Below are positions 2,189 through 64,000 of a stretch of DNA of 64,000 nt, in pieces. A program made the position numbers and the translations under genes. Position 1 is the stretch's first letter; each line of letters opens with the position of its first letter. A model generated the notes under the pieces. It worked only from the letters and a program-made list of their open reading frames with translations. It had not been told where the DNA came from and did no database searches. The DNA comes from a virus (Duplodnaviria > Caudoviricetes): IMG/VR virus record IMGVR_UViG_3300026549_000043, positions 75,875 to 139,874 of that record; one strand, 5' to 3'.

Positions 2189-3289
2189 ATGAATAATTAT
2201 TATAAAGTTTATTCTGAATTAAAGAAGTTGTCTTTATTAGAAGACCTTAAAAATAAGCTAACTGAGGAAATTATTTTACCTAATGTTATTAGTTCACCTT
2301 ATGAAAAAAGAGCTAGAGTCCTTTCAAATGGGCATAAATATACTTTAGGTCCTTTAAATTCTGGTGATATTAATAAACTAGTAACTAGATTTAAAAATAA
2401 AATTAGAGAGTTTTCCAGAGACCCAGAAAAAACAACTGAAGAAAAGATTGCTGAATTTCGTAGAATAATTAATTCTCCATTAGATTCTAATTCTCCAGGT
2501 AGTACTCCAGCAGGGAAATTCTACCATAATGCATTAAATAGTTTTGGTGGATATCCTGGAGGAGTAAATAGTCATTTATTCATCTCACCTGGAGATTATC
2601 CTGAATTTGATAAGTATTTTTTAAGTTTAATTAGAGACGCTATTGAAAAATTAGAAAATAATCAAATTAATCCAGCTACTGCTAAATTTACATTAACTCC
2701 AGAAGAAGAAGCTACTTCAAACAGACTTATTTCCTATTTTGATAATAATGGATTTACTAATGTTTTAGGACCTATTAAATCAAAAAAGCATCCTGGTTTC
2801 TATATTTATACGGCCAGGAAAGATATTGATAAAGATATCTTAGACTATGGAAATGAAGATTATTTTGAAATTGGTGATAATTTTGAAAGAATTAGTTCAG
2901 GTGATAAACTAAATTATAGGAGTTTAGTTTACATAAAAGAAATAGCTGATATTTTAGGGGTTAAGCCATTTGCTATGACTGATGACTGGCAACCATTAAT
3001 TTCAACTGATGCTGACTCATTGGACATTGATAAACCTGATAGAAGTTATTTTACCATTAGAGTTGAAGCTCCTTTAACAGCTGAGGGTGTTTCAAAAATT
3101 ACCAAATCTTTAAAGAAAAATATTGAAGATTACGAAGAACCATTAGGTGATTTTAAAATTAAAAAGACAGACTATTATGATTACCTAAAGTATAAGGATA
3201 ATCTTGGTAAAGAAAATAATGGCCAGTACATTTCTTCTTCAGATTTTACTCCAATGGAATATATGAGAGAAAAAGAAAACAATAAATAA
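2189..3289 (+). CDS. Hypothetical protein, probable internal head protein
   Basis: 366 aa, follows the GCTAAATT motif; N-terminal ...SLLED-LKNKLTEE resembles prohead-protease L-x-E sites. Confidence 0.6.
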   Translation: MNNYYKVYSELKKLSLLEDLKNKLTEEIILPNVISSPYEKRARVLSNGHKYTLGPLNSGDINKLVTRFKNKIREFSRDPEKTTEEKIAEFRRIINSPLDSNSPGSTPAGKFYHNALNSFGGYPGGVNSHLFISPGDYPEFDKYFLSLIRDAIEKLENNQINPATAKFTLTPEEEATSNRLISYFDNNGFTNVLGPIKSKKHPGFYIYTARKDIDKDILDYGNEDYFEIGDNFERISSGDKLNYRSLVYIKEIADILGVKPFAMTDDWQPLISTDADSLDIDKPDRSYFTIRVEAPLTAEGVSKITKSLKKNIEDYEEPLGDFKIKKTDYYDYLKYKDNLGKENNGQYISSSDFTPMEYMREKENNK

Positions 3290-3315
3290 TAGAATAAAGG
3301 ATATAGGTGATATAA

Positions 3316-3405
3316 ATGAAAACAACTAGAGAAGAATACAATAAGGCTCTAGCTGAATTTAATGCCAAGTATGTTAATACTGACAAAGATTTATTAGAGG
3401 ATTAA
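3316..3405 (+). CDS. 29-aa peptide MKTTREEYNKALAEFNAKYVNTDKDLLED
   Basis: RBS aggtga upstream; similar to the internal segment EKYNKELSECETK...RLLED of the 4765 protein. Confidence 0.45.
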   Translation: MKTTREEYNKALAEFNAKYVNTDKDLLED

Positions 3406-3413
3406 TTAGAATT

Positions 3414-3884
3414 ATGCCATTTATTAAAAGATTAAACAAACACCAACTACATTTTGAAGACCTAGTTCTATTAGGGCCAGAAGGGTTAGAAGAATTAAAT
3501 GATAAAATAGAGGGTACTATCGAAACTTTAGAAAATAATTCAGAAAGGATTAATCTTACTACTAAGATTGATGGTTGTTTAGCTCCTGAAACACTAGTAG
3601 CTACAACAGAGGGTGATACTGCTTTTAGTAAGATAATATCTGACTATAATAAAGGTAAGGTATATTATGGTTATGGAGTTAATGATTCAACTGGAGAAAT
3701 TATACCAGTTGAACTTAAAATGCCAAGAGTTAAAAACGGTAATAAAAATTGGTGCACAATAGAATTTAATAATGGTGGTTATTTAACTGCTACAGTAGAC
3801 CACCCAATAAAAGTTGATGATGATTATGTTGAAGCCGGTAAGCTGGAAGTGACTACAAAAATAGAGGGTATCGATCATTTTTAG
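3414..3884 (+). CDS. DUF6267-like N-extein (54 aa, ending TTKIDG) fused to split-intein N-fragment (3576-3881)
   Basis: HFEDLV...TTKIDG, then intein block A CLAPETLV and block B TATVDHP; ends at TAG with no C-terminal HN. Confidence 0.88.
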   Translation: MPFIKRLNKHQLHFEDLVLLGPEGLEELNDKIEGTIETLENNSERINLTTKIDGCLAPETLVATTEGDTAFSKIISDYNKGKVYYGYGVNDSTGEIIPVELKMPRVKNGNKNWCTIEFNNGGYLTATVDHPIKVDDDYVEAGKLEVTTKIEGIDHF

Positions 3885-3894
3885 TTTTATTGTT

Positions 3895-3909
3895 GCTAAA
3901 TTAATTATA
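3895..3909 (+). promoter_or_regulatory. GCTAAATT promoter motif upstream of the HNH gene
   Basis: GCTAAATTAATTATA, then RBS aaggagg and ATG at 3927. Confidence 0.7.
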
Positions 3910-3926
3910 AAATTAAGGAGGCAAAT

Positions 3927-4787
3927 ATGGCTAATAATAATAAATCTTTAACCACCCGTAAATTAGAATATGATAAAATTGTTGAATTTAGAAAATTACA
4001 TAGTATCGACTATCTAAATAATATAGCTAAGTTAATGGGTTATACAACAATATCAGAGGTATTTGATGATGGTTGGCCTATAACAGAACTAAAAAAATAT
4101 AGTGATGAAGCCAGTAAATTAACTTGAGGGGCTGATATTCCAAATAGATATTGAAAATTTATGTGTAGAGAAGTTTGTAATGAATATTTAACTGAAAAAT
4201 ATGGGTCACCTAAAGATTACTTCAATACAGAAGTTTTTATTAAACGGAGAGTAACAAATATAGGTAACACTATGGAAACTAGGTATGGGTATAGAAATCC
4301 TGGCCAATCACCTGAACACCGTGAACTTATGAAAAAGGGAAGTAATTGTAAAAATCCCTTTTCATCTGACTCTTTTAAATATAATTCATATATTCGTGGT
4401 AAAACGGTATTGCCAGAAGATAAAATAGCATATGATGAATATAGAAAAAAGGTTGATAAGCTCACAGATATAAATAAACAAAATTTACCTTTTACAGGTA
4501 TATGCTATTATACAGAATTACCTATTTTTAAATATGATGGTAATAAAACAATTAATAGAAATGATTGGAATATGGCTACAATAGATCATAAAATTTCTGT
4601 TATAGCTGGTTTTTTAAGAGGTATTTCTCCTGAAATTATTTCTAGTGTAGATAATTTATGTTGATGCTCAAAGTATTTTAATAGTTTCAAGGGTTCCAAA
4701 TGTGAAGATGAAATTAGGCTGTCAGGTCTGATCGAACGATTTAAGGAGGTTATTAAAAAATACTATGCAAGTAGTGAAGGTGACTAA
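3927..4787 (+). CDS. Free-standing HNH homing endonuclease (286 aa with TGA=Trp)
   Basis: Reading TGA at 4125, 4152 and 4662 as Trp joins two track ORFs and completes IDHKIS...DNLC(W)CSKYFNSFKG. It sits between the two intein halves. Confidence 0.85.
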
Positions 4788-7700
4788 ATTAAAGACAAAA
4801 TTTCCCCAGTGTGATCTCACAACTGATACAGAAAACTTTTATGTAAAAGTTGGTGACAAATACATTTTAGTACATAATTCCCCAGCTTTAATAGTATGGC
4901 ATGAATATCCAGGCTACCCAAATGATTCAGTAGCTCTAAAGGGTTTTCTTTCTGGACCACAAAATGCTATTTCTACTCCAGAACAAGTAGATGCTAAGTA
5001 TGGTGATAGACCAGGAATGTCTCAGATGTTGAAGTATGGATTACAAATAGCCAAAGAGATTCCTTCTGGTGAAGCTTGGCAGGGTGATTGCTTGTTTGTA
5101 AAAGATACCAAGAGGGAAGAAGAAATTAATGGTAAAGATTACATTACATTCCAGCCTAATAAGATTATCTATGCTTTTTCTGAAGATAATCCTGGGTATG
5201 AAAAAGTAAAGAATGCAGATTTTGGAATTGCTTTCCATACTATTTATACAGGTGAAGATAAGCATCAATCTTTTAAAGTAGATCCTTCAAAATTAAATGT
5301 TCCAGATAATATTTATATTATGTCTCCAACCTTAAATAGACCAAAAGATGTAAAGGTATTTAATTTGGATGGGGTTAAATCTCAATTTGATAAACTTCAG
5401 AATTTAGAACAAAAATTATTATCCAGTTTTGAATACGAAGATTTAGTTAATAATCAGGTATTCATGAAATACTGGAATACTTTTGAAAATGCTAATTTAG
5501 CTGATAAAAAATCTGTTACTATTAATGAAAATACTTTTATTAATGATTTAAAAGAATACATCAAAGATAAGAGAACAAAAGAATTTGAAACCCAGGTTGG
5601 TAAATTAAAGACTGATGCTGGGAAAGAAAAAGCTAAAACTAAGTATGAACAAGATTTAGAAGACTTACGAGAATTAATTGATCACAATAAAGATTTACTT
5701 ACTACACTAGTACAGACTCTTAATTGTGCTGCTACAATTAAAATGTTATTATGGCAAGGATTTAAACAAACACAATTTGACTATAATACTTTCTATCGTT
5801 CTAGAACTAAAGGTTATATTCCAGGTGAAATGGAAGGTGTAGCCATGAGTGACCAAGACGGTAATATTGTTAAGATCGTAGACCGTAGTACTTTTAGTTC
5901 TTATAATCGTGATCCCGATATCCTAGCGGGGTTCGATCACCCTGAAAATCTTACCGAAGAACAATCTTGTTTTATTGAAAAATATAATAAAGAATTAAGT
6001 GAATGTGAGACTAAACAACTTTGGGAAAGATTTGGTAGATTATTAGAAGATGACCAAAGAACTGTTGTATTAGCTTTCGGGAGACTTAATCCCCCTACCT
6101 GGGGTCATCGTAAATTAGTAGATAAGATGGCATCACTAGCTCAGAGTGAAAAGGCAAAGTTATTCTTAAGTCATACACAGGATAAGAAAAAGAACCCTTT
6201 AAGCTATGAAGATAAAATTCATTTTGCCAAAGAAGCTTTTGAACCTCAGATAGATGTCGTTAAGTCAGATGCAAGGACAATCATTGAAGTCTTAACCGAT
6301 CTTTATAAAGAAGGGGTAAAGAACATCATCTATGTTGGTGGAGAAGATCGTATTGGTGGAAAAGAAGATGTCTCTGACTTGATCCTAAGATATAATGGCC
6401 AACCAGATAAGCAAGGTAACATTCTATACGATTTTGATTCAATTCAATTTAAGAACGCTGGATCTAGATCAGATGACTCAGATGACTTTGTAGAAAGAGC
6501 TTCAGCAAGCTTAGCAAGAAAGTATGCCCAGGAGGGTGACTTTAAACACTTTAGTGAAATAGTCCCATTCAGTGATGCTGATGCCAAAGAACTTTATAAA
6601 AAGGTTAGATCTGGATTGGGTCTTAGTGATGAAATATTAACCGAAGCCAATTTTAGTTACCCAGATATCCTTAAAACAAACCATAGCTATTATCTTGATG
6701 TAGTCGATGATTTTTTAAGTGATGGTGTTGTTGGTGCTGATAATAATATATATAAGATAAAACCTACTCAAGATGCAGAAGAAGTTAAAAACGAATTAAT
6801 TTCTATTAAAGAATTAGTTGGTAAAAATAACCAAGAATTTAATAAAAAGTTTAAGGATATAACTGGTGTTGAATGGACTAAAATTTATAAGGGTAAATAT
6901 TCTGGTCATACAAATGGACAATCATCAGGTGAAGCAGCCGAGGCAGTAGTATCTTATTTATATAATAATCCGGGAAAGGATCTCCCAGATGGAGTAGAGA
7001 TCTCTGATAAATGGATTACCTCTTCTAAAAATATTGCTAATTTTTTAGAAAATATTTGGCCACATGAAAATTATTTTGCTATCCATGTTAATGGTAATGA
7101 TTTAGAACCTATTGGAGAATATAAGAATATTGGTAAATTATTTAAATCTAAAAAAGAAGCTGCCTCTGTTTTAGGATTAAAAAATGAACTAGATGATTTA
7201 TATGTAGGTGGAAAAGATACCTGGAATAAAGCTGATATTTTATTAGTTAAAAAAGGTGCTCCTATATTAAAGTACTTTGAAAATATTAAAAATAGCTCTG
7301 ATTATAATGAAAGGATAAATCAACTAGCTTCAGGGGATTCACCTTTATTAATCCCAGTGTCATTAAAGGGTGTTTCAAATAGAACAAACTTAACTGTTGT
7401 CCCAGAAGGATTTGATGCTGGTGAAGTCTTACATGCTAAAGATATAAAAGTAGTATTCCCAATAAAACCATTAGAGCCTGAAACTAATAATTGTAGTTGT
7501 TGGTTAATAGATAATCTGGGTAGAAGAATACAATTTAGAAGACAAACAGATACTGAAGATAATCTTAGTGTTGAAGTGTCATTGAATAAAGATTCTCGTG
7601 GAGGTAAGGGTATTACCAGATTGAAGAAAGAACTAGGATTGTCTAATAATGAATGGTATAAAACTCCTATAACTTCTGAGAATGAATTATATAGCAAACT

Positions 7701-7914
7701 TAGAAACCTAGGTGAATTATCAAAACCTAGTGATAATTTTATAAACGGTAATACTTCAGGTGAATACGCTTGGTATAATAGAACTTGTTTTAGAGGAATT
7801 ACTTCTTTATTTGAAGAATATCAAAATAAATTTGGTGGCAGTAATTTAGAATTTTTTGATTGGATATATGAAAATAGTACCATTGGTACCAGTGGATTTT
7901 ATTTAGTTTATTAA
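4765..7914 (+). CDS. Split-intein C-fragment (38 aa, ...ILVHN) plus C-extein: DUF6267-like domain, HIGH-type cytidylyltransferase/NMNAT-like domain and an unknown C-terminal domain
   Basis: MQVVKVTK...CDLT...NFYV...VHN/S; QGDCLF, TFQPN, GIAFHT, EGVAMSD..GNIVKIVDR; FGRLNPPTWGH; VGGEDR. Confidence 0.85.
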   Translation: MQVVKVTKLKTKFPQCDLTTDTENFYVKVGDKYILVHNSPALIVWHEYPGYPNDSVALKGFLSGPQNAISTPEQVDAKYGDRPGMSQMLKYGLQIAKEIPSGEAWQGDCLFVKDTKREEEINGKDYITFQPNKIIYAFSEDNPGYEKVKNADFGIAFHTIYTGEDKHQSFKVDPSKLNVPDNIYIMSPTLNRPKDVKVFNLDGVKSQFDKLQNLEQKLLSSFEYEDLVNNQVFMKYWNTFENANLADKKSVTINENTFINDLKEYIKDKRTKEFETQVGKLKTDAGKEKAKTKYEQDLEDLRELIDHNKDLLTTLVQTLNCAATIKMLLWQGFKQTQFDYNTFYRSRTKGYIPGEMEGVAMSDQDGNIVKIVDRSTFSSYNRDPDILAGFDHPENLTEEQSCFIEKYNKELSECETKQLWERFGRLLEDDQRTVVLAFGRLNPPTWGHRKLVDKMASLAQSEKAKLFLSHTQDKKKNPLSYEDKIHFAKEAFEPQIDVVKSDARTIIEVLTDLYKEGVKNIIYVGGEDRIGGKEDVSDLILRYNGQPDKQGNILYDFDSIQFKNAGSRSDDSDDFVERASASLARKYAQEGDFKHFSEIVPFSDADAKELYKKVRSGLGLSDEILTEANFSYPDILKTNHSYYLDVVDDFLSDGVVGADNNIYKIKPTQDAEEVKNELISIKELVGKNNQEFNKKFKDITGVEWTKIYKGKYSGHTNGQSSGEAAEAVVSYLYNNPGKDLPDGVEISDKWITSSKNIANFLENIWPHENYFAIHVNGNDLEPIGEYKNIGKLFKSKKEAASVLGLKNELDDLYVGGKDTWNKADILLVKKGAPILKYFENIKNSSDYNERINQLASGDSPLLIPVSLKGVSNRTNLTVVPEGFDAGEVLHAKDIKVVFPIKPLEPETNNCSCWLIDNLGRRIQFRRQTDTEDNLSVEVSLNKDSRGGKGITRLKKELGLSNNEWYKTPITSENELYSKLRNLGELSKPSDNFINGNTSGEYAWYNRTCFRGITSLFEEYQNKFGGSNLEFFDWIYENSTIGTSGFYLVY

Positions 7915-8117
7915 TGAAAAAAGATTATTATATTATTCATAGGATTTTATCTAATAATTGGGGATCCAATACTTTAAAAATCATAGGTTATTTTTATTCT
8001 ACTGAAGATTTAATTAAAAAGAAGGTTTCTCAATTAAATCAAAAAATTCCAAAAAGACAATCAAATTATTATAAATATGGTTATATAAAAATTTCTGAAA
8101 TAGCTGAAGAATTATAA
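7914..8117 (+). CDS. Hypothetical protein
   Basis: 67 aa, coupled to the upstream gene by a TAATG overlap. Confidence 0.5.
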   Translation: MKKDYYIIHRILSNNWGSNTLKIIGYFYSTEDLIKKKVSQLNQKIPKRQSNYYKYGYIKISEIAEEL

Positions 8118-60161: not shown

Positions 60162-60379
60162 ATGGCAACAAATTTATTAGAAAGCTATAAGGGCAGATTA
60201 GCCATTTCTGAAAAGTATTATGCTCAGCAGAATGCTGGTGCTAGAATGTCTAATCAGAAGAAGTTATTAACTGCCGCTTGCTTAAACAATACTGCACAGT
60301 TTATTAATGAAGCATTTGCTAACAGTGTAGGTACTCAGAGAGCTGACTTAGGTAAGTTCAAGCAGTTCTGTATGGATAT
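60162..60379 (+). CDS. Major capsid protein (gp23-like), exon 1
   Basis: MATNLLES...FCMD; the exon end GGATAT pairs with intron GTATCC through a terminal U-G wobble. Confidence 0.85.
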
Positions 60380-60449
60380 AAATTAGGTTGTATCCTTAGT
60401 AAATATAAAAATTAGTTTACCCTTTTATTGAATATGTTTATAATATAAT

Positions 60450-60538
60450 TATAGTTGGGGACAGCAGGTTGCAAACTGTTTCTAGATACCCTATTATTTA
60501 GATTACCCAATTTATATATAAATCTATAGGGAGATAAT
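60450..60538 (+). ncRNA. Structured leader RNA (3-way junction plus RBS pseudoknot), copy 1
   Basis: Four helices, with compensatory changes relative to 61840-61930. Confidence 0.7.
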
Positions 60539-61441
60539 ATGAAAAAACATAGACTTAGTTTAAAACAGGCCTTAGATAGAGTAAATAAAGAAGAATTTGA
60601 AATATCTTATAGAAAAATAGAAAATACTTTATCAGATATTAGTAAATTATTTAATATCTCAGTTAGTATGGTTAAACGATTGGCTGAATATTGGGATATA
60701 TCCTGGAGCAAAGAAGAAATTTCTGCCCGGAAAAAATATAATTCAAGTAAATATGACCATCAAAAGTCTAATTTATTAAGATTAGAAACTAACCTTAATA
60801 GATATGGTACATATAATCCACGGACAATTTTACATCCTGATAGTTATTCTTACGATAAAAATAAAATAGATTTACAACAAAATAAATATAAAGAAACTTG
60901 TAAATCTAAATATGGTACACCATACTATTCACAAACAGATAAATTTAAAAATGGAATGGTTAATTCTTTTAAGAAAACCATGCTCTTAAAGTATGGTGTT
61001 GATCATTTCATGAAAGTACCAGAACTTAAAAATAGAATAATACAGGCTGGTCGAGGAAGCTATTATTATAAAGATTTATATTTTAAATCTTCTTGGGAAT
61101 TAGCTTTTTATATTTTCCATTTAGATAATGGAGATAACATCATTCACAGTAAATTTATTAAACCTTTTAAATATATTTATAATTCTGTTGAGCATAGTTA
61201 TTTCCCGGATTTTATATTAAATGGTGATTATATTGAAATAAAAGGTTGGCAATTCTTAGATAATAATGGAAATTTAATAAATCCTTATAATCATAATTTA
61301 GATGGATTGTCTAGGGCTAAACAAGAATGTATGATAGCTAATAATGTTAAATTACTAACTCAAGATGATATTCAATATTCTATTGATTATATTATTGATC
61401 AATATGGACCTGATTTTTTAAAAAATTGTAAACTAAAATAA
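60539..61441 (+). CDS. Intron-encoded PD-(D/E)XK-type homing endonuclease
   Basis: T...KYG repeats; FKSSWE...YFPDF......IEIKG. Confidence 0.8.
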   Translation: MKKHRLSLKQALDRVNKEEFEISYRKIENTLSDISKLFNISVSMVKRLAEYWDISWSKEEISARKKYNSSKYDHQKSNLLRLETNLNRYGTYNPRTILHPDSYSYDKNKIDLQQNKYKETCKSKYGTPYYSQTDKFKNGMVNSFKKTMLLKYGVDHFMKVPELKNRIIQAGRGSYYYKDLYFKSSWELAFYIFHLDNGDNIIHSKFIKPFKYIYNSVEHSYFPDFILNGDYIEIKGWQFLDNNGNLINPYNHNLDGLSRAKQECMIANNVKLLTQDDIQYSIDYIIDQYGPDFLKNCKLK

Positions 61442-61728
61442 AAATTACTAATAAAAACCCCATTAATTTCTGGAAAACCTTATAGTTGTGGTTAAGGCTA
61501 TAAGACAATCAGAAGCCAAGCTATATAAATTATATAGAAGGTTCAACGACTATCGAAAATATATCCTTTGAGAAATCCATTGGAGAATAAATGAGTAGAG
61601 TACATCTTAGTAAGATGGAAAGATGGGGATGCCAGGTAGAGATAAAGTTTACTTGGTATATAATATAGTCTGAACTATATAGTGATATATAGAGAATAAT
61701 TGGAAACGAATTATTCGTAACATATTTG

Positions 61729-61753
61729 TACTACATTAACCATGCCAAACCTT
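61729..61753 (+). CDS. Major capsid protein, 25-nt exon 2 ((I)TTLTMPNL)
   Basis: Lies between the terminal G of intron 1 and the CCTT/GAGG P1 of intron 2; supplies the gp23 PNL motif. Confidence 0.82.
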
Positions 61754-61839
61754 TAAACAGTAGAGGCATTAATTAGTGATAATTAATGGAAAGCATTTAA
61801 TTTCTAATAAAGTTTACATAGCCAAATATATAATATAAA

Positions 61840-61930
61840 ATAAATAAGTGGGACAGTAGGTTCGAAACTATTTCTAATTACCGCATTAATTAGATTACCA
61901 CTATTTATACATTACTATGCGGGGTAAATT
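61840..61930 (+). ncRNA. Structured leader RNA, copy 2
   Basis: Same fold as 60450-60538; loop CCGCAT pairs with ATGCGG at the RBS. Confidence 0.7.
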
Positions 61931-62668
61931 ATGATTATATATAAAATAACAAATTTAGTAAACAATAAAATTTATATTGGTCAAACTAGAAATTCATTAA
62001 ATTCTAGATGAAGCTGTCACATTAGAGATAGCAAATACGCTTCAACCGGTATTGATTCAGCTATCAGAAAATATGGAAAAGAAAATTTCAAGGTTGAGGT
62101 ATTAGACGATACCGCTTCTTCACTGGAAGAATTAAATAATTTAGAAATATATTATATAAAGTTATATAATTCTACTAATAATAAAATAGGTTATAACCAA
62201 ACTACTGGTGGCGGTGGAATCTCAGGCTATACTCATAACGAAGAATCCAAGTATAGATGTGGATCTTCATTTAGAGGTAAAAAAAGAATTAAAACAGTTG
62301 ATCAAGTAGATAAGTGACGTATAACATTTTATAAGAATAATAATCATATAAAGAGTGAAGAATTCTGTCGTAAACAAAGTGAAAATTTAAAATTAGCTTA
62401 TGCATCGGGTAGAAGAAAACCAAATGGAAAAGGAGTCGGCGGTAGAAAGCCAATGTCTGAAGAAGAAAAAATAAGAAATAGCGTTACTCAAAGTGGAGCC
62501 AAAAAGATGTTTCATAAAAAATTGGAAATTATTACACTTGTTTATAAAGATGAAATATCTGACAGATTATCCGAGGAATTTGAATTTTGTACAAAATCAA
62601 ATAACTTTATATGAAAAGATTATAAATATGTAAAACGTAAAGAATTTAAAATGCTAAAACCCTTTTAA
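61931..62668 (+). CDS. Intron-encoded GIY-YIG homing endonuclease (245 aa, TGA=Trp; absent from the ORF track)
   Basis: MIIYKITNLVNNKIYIGQT...R(W)..H...AIRKYG.ENF...E..YI...GYN...GG; TGAs at 62009, 62315, 62612. Confidence 0.9.
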
Positions 62669-62933
62669 TTTCTGGAAACTCTTATATATCATAATGTCAG
62701 TATATAAGACAATCAGAAGCCAAGCTATATAAATTATATAGAAGGTTCAACGACTATCGAAATGGTAACCTAAAAGAAAAATTTAGGTGAGAACAAAGTA
62801 GAGTAGAACTAAAGTTAGTTCGAAATGGAGGGAGTCATAGCGAGGTTGGCAACAAGCTATGATTGTGATATAGTCTAATCTATATGGTGACATATAGAAA
62901 ACAAATGGAAACGATTTGTTTGTAATATAAATG

Positions 62934-64000
62934 GTTGTTAATGACATTTTCATGGTTAAGCCAATGACTTCATTCAGTGGCTACCTCACATACATGGAAT
63001 TCGCCCTTGGTACAGAAAAGGGCGGTGCCGGTGGAATTGCTGAGGCAGATCCATTCAAGAATGCTATGGCTGCTTACCGTGGTGAAGAATACCAGGCTAA
63101 TAATATTGTTAATTCAGCTATTACTGGTCTTGGTGTAATGGATGAGAACCGTGCTCGTTACACAGGTGCTGTTGTCGTTGAATCAGTTGCTGCTGGTGAA
63201 GTTAAGCCTTCATGGACACCTGTTCTTGGTGACGTTGAATTCTTAGCTGAAGGTGGAACAGATTGGGCAAAGTTAGAAGCTGATTCCGAAGGTAAGTTAA
63301 CTGTTGATGCTGCTGGTAAGATTCGTTACCACTATGATAATGAATACATTCCACAGGATAAGCTTCCAACATTAGTTGGCCGCATGAAGGGTATTAACTT
63401 AACAGCTAAGGCTCGTAGAATTGCTGTTTACTATTCACAGTTTGCTGCATTCCAGAGCAAGCAGGACTATGGCATGGACTTCGAAGCTACAATCGCTCAG
63501 CAGGCTCAGGCTGAATTACAGTACGAAATCGATGGTGAAGCTGTATTATTAGTCAAGGAAGCTGCCAAGGGTGTTACTGGTTTAACATGGGTTGATGAAG
63601 AGTTAGATACAATCTCTTACTCAATGAAGGCTGAAGGCTTTGCTAGAGTACTCGAACAGGCTAAGGCTGAGGTTTATAAGAAGACTGGCCGTTGGATGCC
63701 TAACTGGATGTTAGTTGGACCAGAGGTTATGCCTATCTTATCATTCGTCAAGGGATTCCAGCCAGCTGCTAATGCTGTAGTAAATGGACCATACGTTGCT
63801 GGTACTGTTGCTGGCTTAAAGGTTATCGTTTCTCCAATGCTCGGCAAGGAATGCTTACTTGGTGTCTTAGGTGCTGATGGCAAGACAGCTACAGGCGTTT
63901 ACGCTCCATATCTTCCTATAGTACCAACTCAGTTATTAGGTTTTGCTGATGGTACTATGTCTCAGGGTTTCTCTACAATGTATGACATGAGAATTTTAAA
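62934..64000 (+). CDS. Major capsid protein (gp23-like), exon 3; runs off the window end
   Basis: VVNDIFMVKPMTSFSG, LTAKARRI, ELQYEIDGE, GVYAPYLP; strongly biased high-expression codons. Confidence 0.9.

Follow-up and report, generated by a model that had tools for sequence, protein, structure and literature searches.

The 64,000-nucleotide (nt) stretch of DNA analysed here, referred to as the window, forms the right-hand end of a record of 139,874 bp from an uncultured virus (IMG/VR record IMGVR_UViG_3300026549_000043; G+C content of the window 32%), and our subject is a small structured RNA element that stands immediately ahead of two endonuclease-type genes within it. Both genes are inserted in a gp23-type major capsid gene, recognised by a Pfam match on its third exon, whose protein has its closest cultured relatives among Bacillus and Listeria myoviruses at 24-28% identity. 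The capsid gene is split by two group I introns, each giving a match to RF00028 in the Rfam scan. Because the joined three-exon reading frame (..FCMDITTLTMPNLVVNDIF..) aligns without a gap at either junction to the capsid protein that Bacillus phage vB_BceM-HSE3 encodes without introns, the boundaries of the introns can be read from it (Table 1). In both introns a cassette consisting of a promoter-like box, the leader element and an open reading frame (ORF) lies between the P1/P2 helices and the catalytic core of the ribozyme.

A preliminary description of this DNA, made without database searches, had pointed to two segments, 60450-60538 and 61840-61930, as unlike in sequence and alike in fold. 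Every helix listed in that description is present in its place, and a three-way junction, in which helix P1 encloses the two hairpins P2 and P3, is the minimum-free-energy (MFE) fold of both copies. The core pattern that the two copies share occurs twice in the window against an expectation of 0.01 occurrences. In addition, the apical loop of P3, called L3 below, is complementary in each copy to the Shine-Dalgarno (SD) region of the gene that follows.

Table 1. Leader copies, their cassettes and the interrupted capsid gene (positions in the window; CM, covariance model; aa, amino acids)
Feature	Position	Strand	Basis or remark
Leader copy 1, three-way junction	60454..60511	+	MFE fold; CM R1 78.3 bits; covariation
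Copy 1 P1	60454-60459 / 60506-60511	+	
Copy 1 J1/2 GAC	60460-60462	+	
Copy 1 P2, loop GUUGCAAA	60463-60467 / 60476-60480	+	
Copy 1 P3	60481-60488 / 60495-60502	+	UUA strand between P3 and P1'
Copy 1 pseudoknot, L3 CCCUAU with AUAGGG	60489-60494 with 60526-60531	+	
Copy 1 pseudoknot 3' strand AUAGGG with the Shine-Dalgarno GGGAG that it overlaps	60526..60533	+	7 nt before AUG 60539
Leader copy 2, three-way junction	61847..61902	+	MFE fold; CM R1 77.8 bits; covariation
Copy 2 P1	61847-61851 / 61898-61902	+	
Copy 2 J1/2 GAC	61852-61854	+	
Copy 2 P2, loop GUUCGAAA	61855-61859 / 61868-61872	+	
Copy 2 P3	61873-61880 / 61887-61894	+	UUA strand between P3 and P1'
Copy 2 pseudoknot, L3 CCGCAU with AUGCGG	61881-61886 with 61917-61922	+	
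Copy 2 pseudoknot 3' strand AUGCGG with the G-rich Shine-Dalgarno that it overlaps	61917..61924	+	8 nt before AUG 61931
Sigma-70-like promoter 1: TTTACC, 17-nt spacer, TATAAT (60439-60444)	60416..60444	+	sequence; P1 starts 8-10 nt after -10 box
Sigma-70-like promoter 2: TTTACA, 17-nt spacer, TAAAAT (61836-61841)	61813..61841	+	sequence; ends 5 nt before P1
ORF 1, endonuclease-type, 300 aa, DUF7487 family, N-terminal HTH-like region	60539..61441	+	Pfam PF24308 E 1.7e-09
ORF 2, GIY-YIG endonuclease, 245 aa with TGA=Trp	61931..62668	+	code 4 translation; Pfam PF01541 E 6.9e-08
Capsid exon 1	60162..60379	+	ORF; gap-free spliced alignment to vB_BceM-HSE3
Group I intron 1	60380..61728	+	RF00028 at 61409-61692, 49.3 bits; boundaries from spliced frame
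Capsid exon 2, 25 nt between introns	61729..61753	+	gap-free spliced frame
Group I intron 2	61754..62933	+	RF00028 at 62620-62897, 57.1 bits; boundaries from spliced frame
Intron 2 P1, CCUU with GAGG	61750-61753 with 61763-61766	+	
Capsid exon 3, continues past window end	62934..64000	+	Pfam Gp23 E 6e-22; spliced frame

Relatives of the leader were collected by pattern scanning, four times in IMG/VR and once in the metagenome contigs of JGI/ENA; the matches were filtered with two covariance models, R1 and R2, and 20 whole phage records were additionally searched with the models. The search patterns forced GGTT..AAAC in the P2 loop as well as several of the conserved positions, and apparent conservation at these places is therefore subject to ascertainment. 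Pattern scans and models together yielded about 70 distinct copies in IMG/VR and the metagenome contigs, with one to seven copies per genome and only the two described above in the window's own genome. Among the species-representative genomes of GTDB there were only chance matches, so that this set contributed no copy from bacteria or prophages; blastn, an insensitive test, found no copy among the cultured phages of INPHARED; and a scan with a pattern for the 3' half gave, among the matches listed, only chance matches beyond the copies already known.

The comparison of these copies establishes the fold. Across 59 distinct copies 97.0% of the helix cells form a standard pair, compared with 67.7% after shuffling and 35-55% when the partner columns are offset by one to three positions. 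Both sides have changed in 16 of the 19 pairs, including all six pairs of P1 and all eight of P3, and the base of P3 (UCUA/UAGA), which seemed invariant in the first 20 copies, covaries among the 59. One pair of P2 is G.U in 56 of the 59 copies, which argues for an RNA of this strand and against a palindrome acting as DNA. While the helices vary, the junction is conserved in its GAC and UUA strands, the top G-C pair of P1, the A-U and G.U pairs at the base of P2 and the U-A pair at the base of P3. Thus the check that the preliminary description had proposed, a covariance model followed by a metagenome search and covariation statistics, came out in favour of the structure, and the compensatory changes it had seen in all four helices extend well beyond the window, the fourth helix (L3:SD) being represented by 17 distinct versions in the first 20 variants. 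The leader RNA is real, widespread and strongly covarying in phages. A subgroup of copies (L201, L244, L192, L213, L216, L219, L196, L200 and L253; copies and phages outside the window are given by our working labels) has a longer P3 in which GAA stands opposite AGUA (C-CUGAAAC ... GAGUAAGG), the sequence signature of an internal motif of the sarcin-ricin/loop-E type.

The pairing between L3 and the SD region was evaluated by script, with cross-pairing and shuffle controls; for the 59-copy set L3 was taken from the central region of P3, so that P3 stems with the GAA/AGUA internal loop are covered. All of the first 20 variants can form 6-7 contiguous Watson-Crick pairs between the two elements, with three to four pair types at each of the helix positions 3 to 7, whereas six or more pairs were reached in only 6% of pairings with the leaders of other copies and 4% of those with shuffled tails. 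In the larger set at least six Watson-Crick pairs are present in 88% of copies, against 14.5% upon cross-pairing, and the remainder mostly involve a G.U pair or a bulge; a copy of 63% G+C (L247) has an L3:SD helix of 8 bp with one G.U included. The SD-side strand begins 11-24 nt (median 17) past P1 and ends 6-13 nt before the AUG in the first 20 variants, covering 3-5 nt of GGAG-like cores. The earlier proposal that the P3 loop masks the ribosome-binding site (RBS) region is therefore well founded as far as the complementarity is concerned. One decayed copy, L009:10748, has lost the SD complementarity and is followed only by a short ORF of about 60 codons; at three other loci (L158:3430-3584(-), L150:870-1080 and L004:1863-2047) the leader and its full L3:SD complementarity are intact and the endonuclease ORF has been shortened by stops. 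A few copies have the complement of L3 twice, at the SD and over the start codon (L240:2571-2670, L158 and L157:5813-5913(-)), as UUAUGG twice in L240 and as AUGAG​AG and then AUGAG in the L157 copy. Apart from these few sites over the start codon, second sites that might serve as a decoy or "parking" place for L3 were A/U-rich chance matches, and no conserved alternative (anti-sequestor) helix was found.

The P2 loop turned out differently from what had been described. The loops of the two copies in the window had been called T-loop-like, but the five-nt U-N-N-N-A core of a T-loop, with its U:A reverse-Hoogsteen pair, is not conserved in the copies found without sequence constraints. In copies found only by the models the P2 loops are AUUGCAAG, AAUUCGAAA, UUGCAA, CUUAUAAU, AGUCAUGA (in two phages), AUUAAUUAC and GUAGCUC (twice); these vary in sequence, and almost all have a self-complementary core. 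A 6-nt palindrome is present in eight of the ten loop types, as five different hexamers, where about 5% would be expected for random 8-nt loops of like composition. The palindromic cores are UUGCAA, UUCGAA, UUAUAA, UCAUGA (found in two different phages) and AUUAAU/UAAUUA, with AGCU in two copies. In the 58 pattern-ascertained copies the two free central bases of the loop are only GC or CG, while chance matches to the pattern have many other dinucleotides. The loop hexamer is repeated downstream in only five of these 58 copies, four of which form the LAGLIDADG subgroup (L015:1135-1165(-), L166:1964-1990, L228 and L195) with UUGCAA in the linker between P1 and the SD and with differing neighbouring bases; a second pairing in cis is possible there. 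In L221:1191, P2 seems to carry a GACG tetraloop-type loop.

Promoter-like sequences are found just upstream of many copies. In 12 of the first 20 variants P1 is preceded, at a distance of 2-11 nt, by a hexamer that matches the -10 box in at least five of six positions, compared with 16% of random positions, and L160 has a perfect TTGACA-17-TATAAT ahead of its leader. The T4-late-type sequence TATAAATA precedes the leader in six of the seven copies of a 224-kb phage (G009) and also in L148, L149 and L169, while the intron-borne copies of the L015 group are without a recognisable promoter. Given the boxes just upstream, the 5' end of the transcript would coincide with the start of the leader or fall a few bases from it. 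The preliminary description had placed a TATAAT box before each copy in the window; this is correct for copy 1, and the box of copy 2 reads TAAAAT.

The genes behind the leader belong to the GIY-YIG, LAGLIDADG_3, DUF7487, HNH-like and DUF723/Hef-like families and to one family without a Pfam match, and a DUF7487 gene follows the leader in G002, L198 and L232 as it does in the first intron here. The two endonucleases of the window, one DUF7487 and one GIY-YIG, are thus unrelated as had been stated. Many copies reside in homologues of the window's two introns, and a single capsid gene often holds several of them (three in G002, more in L157); related phages have at least three such introns per capsid gene, for example G002/L181 at 3118-8035, and L157. 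In L149 the leader is free-standing, together with an HNH-like ORF, between complete thioredoxin and phosphoesterase genes of the opposite strand, in keeping with the earlier view that it lies outside the group I core. In the LAGLIDADG group a split gene appears to contain a structured stretch resembling an intron, with the leader and ORF on its 3' side, and RF00028 gives no match to this stretch; the L018 group has its leader and ORF 3' of the intron-like stretch, as opposed to 5' of the core in the window. That the leader occurs only as a peripheral domain of group I introns is contradicted by the free-standing cassette of L149 and by the placement in the L018 group. At L018:7786-9197(-) a 1.4-kb insert with intron-like motifs and no match to RF00028 divides a structural-looking gene into two halves of 201 aa. 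About 1.5 kb upstream of the leader of L015, at 2714-2775(-), there is a RAGATH-18 RNA (RF03064, 60.1 bits).

A few further aspects of the locus should be recorded. The cores of the two introns are closely similar, the introns being 25 nt apart and having a different endonuclease family in each. By eye, P1 of intron 1 may be formed by GGAUAU (60374-60379) with GUAUCC (60390-60395), and its P2 by 60396-60402 with 61445-61451, which would close a loop containing the promoter, the leader and the ORF. ORF 2 contains in-frame TGA codons at 62009, 62315 and 62612; all three of its tryptophans are encoded by TGA and none by TGG, unlike the capsid gene and ORF 1, which use TGG. Further ORFs of the same phage are open only if TGA is read as tryptophan, and some ORFs that end in TGA under table 11 lengthen under code 4. 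The only tRNAs in the 140-kb record, which is 83% complete, are tRNA-Trp(CCA) and tRNA-Gln(UUG), with no UCA suppressor.

In line with the preliminary description, which could match the leader to no family, the matches in Rfam 15, at the gathering threshold and, for positions 60300-63000 of the window, at E<=10, were confined to the two group I introns, apart from a chance match to snoR25, and none of the other copies searched produced a family match to the leader. A tRNA or tRNA-like structure is likewise rejected: ARAGORN found no tRNA in the window and RF00005 has no match on the leader. The SAM-II, preQ1-II and SAM-III (SMK box) riboswitches are compact leaders that draw the RBS into a pseudoknot or a junction helix, but these have a known ligand at the pseudoknot and control metabolic genes; here a ligand is not indicated and the pseudoknot is set apart from the conserved core. 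A closer parallel in design is int-alpA (RF02996), an orphan motif of untested function. It is a three-way junction of similar size with a P1 enclosing two hairpins, and its second hairpin loop (ACCUUCA-like) is complementary to a GAAGG-type SD-like sequence just downstream. Its junction strands, however, are UA / GAAAA / CU rather than GAC / none / UUA, its P2, a stem of 4 bp, ends in a tetraloop-like loop that is not palindromic, and its setting, unlike that of the leader, is in GC-rich proteobacterial islands. RF02996, with a gathering threshold of 35.8 bits, has no match in positions 60300-63000 of the window (E<=10), nor in the whole record or in 18 loci with diverse copies (E<=1), and reciprocally model R2 has no match (E<=10) in 15 loci with int-alpA scores of 34-76 bits. 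The design is shared but the reciprocal tests fail; membership is therefore unsupported, and the principle is not wholly without precedent. The main text of the 2017 paper that introduced int-alpA contains no discussion of the motif.

The nearest functional precedent is in T-even phages, where RBS-sequestering structures repress I-TevI, I-TevII, I-TevIII, segB and mobE (the last in phage Aeh1), and where translation of I-TevI impairs splicing of the td intron, and masking of the SD protects splicing of the host intron (PMC3014915). As in those leaders, the SD of an intron-borne or free-standing gene is contained in a helix of cis RNA, and a dedicated promoter adjoins the structure. In the T-even leaders, however, the structure is a simple local hairpin and no sequence is conserved throughout the family; here it is a loop:SD pseudoknot built on a conserved junction and provided with a self-complementary second loop. 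Moreover, the late promoter of I-TevI lies inside the hairpin and late transcripts escape repression, while the -10 boxes described here end 2-11 nt upstream of P1, are not embedded in the structure and would leave the mask in every transcript. The lariat-capping ribozyme GIR1 of twin-ribozyme group I introns also stands directly 5' of a homing endonuclease ORF and governs its expression (PMC2219692). GIR1 is catalytic, about 190 nt long and found in eukaryotic nuclear ribosomal DNA introns, in contrast to our non-catalytic-looking leader of about 60 nt, which occurs in phages and also outside introns. We consider the leader a new structured form of the known RBS-sequestering principle of T-even homing endonucleases, not represented in Rfam.

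How might the leader work? We think it likely that it acts in cis as a translational brake on mobile nuclease genes by sequestering their SD. Each copy would form the 5' leader of an endonuclease transcript, with the promoter box setting P1 at or near the 5' end of the RNA. P2 and P3 abut without a linker and are probably stacked on each other, while the conserved GAC and UUA strands would join them to P1. The apical loop of P3, of 6-9 nt, would then serve as an anti-Shine-Dalgarno sequence tailored to its own gene; reaching past an A/U-rich linker of 11-24 nt it would pair with 6-7 nt overlapping the RBS, and in the resulting pseudoknot the site would be out of reach of 30S subunits. If so, nuclease translation would be kept low and delayed. 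Such restraint could be useful in two respects, since excess nuclease would be dangerous and intron-borne translation would also disturb ribozyme folding and splicing of the capsid mRNA. Release perhaps occurs through pseudoknot breathing together with standby binding at the A/U-rich linker, through dimerisation, or through a ligand or protein at the conserved junction.

Several observations weigh against this simple scenario. The folding-energy z-scores of the two single sequences are weak (-1.2 and -1.6), and since the energies are unremarkable the case rests on the comparison with other copies. Since a plain hairpin would suffice for masking an SD, a function beyond passive masking is implied by the conservation of the junction and by the self-complementarity of the P2 loop. 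Read-through and promoter-started transcripts would both carry the whole element, and the escape of late transcripts known from T4 is therefore inapplicable. Finally, in phages of 45-55 kb the leader precedes an HTH_36 gene of about 100 aa that is not a recognisable nuclease. At L212:10744-11148(-), for instance, TATAAATA is followed by a leader and then by an HTH_36 gene of 104 aa, wedged between the large terminase and portal genes, and related genes are present in L225, L199 and L239; this gene may be a moron, or a remnant of the DNA-binding domain of a nuclease. The link to nucleases is thus strong and not absolute: the module does travel with endonuclease genes of at least five families, as the preliminary description had proposed, but also with these small HTH_36 genes.

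The self-complementary P2 loop, which in most copies has no partner in cis, hints at kissing-loop homodimers. One may imagine a self-dimerising leader, in which two mRNAs joined through their P2 loops in a concentration-dependent manner lock or otherwise modulate the SD-masked state, giving dose-dependent feedback on nuclease synthesis, or perhaps presenting a long stacked helix to an RNase. The dimerisation initiation site (DIS) of HIV-1 has a 6-nt self-complementary sequence in a hairpin loop, with palindromes that differ by lineage. The leader resembles it, as predicted from the sequence only, in having a lineage-specific 6-nt palindrome flanked by 0-2 nt in a loop of 6-9 nt, although the context of the DIS is a packaged genome and that of the leader a phage mRNA. 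We regard this idea as tentative and, on balance, rather unlikely, in spite of the excess of palindromes among the model-found loops and the restriction of the central dinucleotide to GC or CG. The support is drawn from nucleotide sequences alone; A/U-rich kisses of 6 bp would be weak; the conservation of the loop is largely a product of the GGTT..AAAC forced by the patterns; L221 has its tetraloop-type P2; and the linker hexamer of the LAGLIDADG subgroup suggests cis pairing in that subgroup. More doubtful still is a self-recognising riboregulator in which P2-paired mRNAs would lock the pseudoknot, or hand it over to an RNase, only at high transcript abundance. If this were true, the leader would be an RNA-only copy-number sensor limiting the dose of a selfish nuclease in phages, and unlike palindromes (UUGCAA in one intron here and UUCGAA in the other, for example) would keep adjacent cassettes orthogonal.

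The conserved junction could instead be taken as the mark of a riboswitch-like or protein-responsive switch, in which the pseudoknot is stabilised or freed when a small molecule, or else a protein of phage or host, binds there. Conservation of the junction nucleotides amid freely varying helices speaks for such a device, as does the resemblance of the architecture to SD-sequestering pseudoknot riboswitches and the three-way junction of SAM-III, and any partner would have to be universal, given phages of very different promoter type and G+C content. We nevertheless consider a switch unlikely: no ligand would make regulatory sense for nuclease genes, the secondary structure places the conserved core far from the variable pseudoknot that it would have to control, neither an anti-sequestor helix nor a decoy site is conserved, and several of the conserved positions were imposed by the search patterns. 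Protection of mRNA by 5'-terminal stems is established, and promoter boxes set the start of transcription at or beside the first P1 pair in most copies, so that P1 might guard the nuclease mRNA from 5'-end-dependent decay by RNase J or RNase E/RppH with the SD pairing as a secondary matter. This we find improbable, because it leaves unexplained both how L3 tracks the SD of its own gene through at least 17 different helices and why the intron copies of the L015 group have no recognisable promoter. Least probable is an operator in the DNA, with the P2 inverted repeat and its palindromic centre bound by a dimeric protein downstream of the promoter. Stem and loop do make a near-palindrome of 16-18 bp at about +10 to +30, and I-TevI is known to autorepress at an operator over its own promoter (cited in PMC3014915). 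However, the G.U pair retained in nearly all copies would be a mismatch in DNA, P1, P3 and the pseudoknot are non-palindromic and yet strongly covarying, and the downstream proteins come from unrelated families with no common autorepressor.

Returning to the translational brake, its interest lies in the problem that it would solve. Homing endonucleases need to be made in small, well-timed amounts, and translation within an intron competes with folding of the ribozyme, with the major capsid gene at stake in this phage. The nuclease genes headed by the leader represent at least five unrelated families, and they occur inside introns as well as between genes, across phages of very different G+C content and promoter type; a portable leader this compact would be a general governor of expression for mobile nuclease cassettes. 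Since its loop:SD pairs vary between copies and its second loop is palindromic, it offers a clean and mutable test system for how selfish genes stay tolerable and, for tunable control of translation, a small RNA part of natural origin. By analogy, the orphan int-alpA motif may find an explanation as well.

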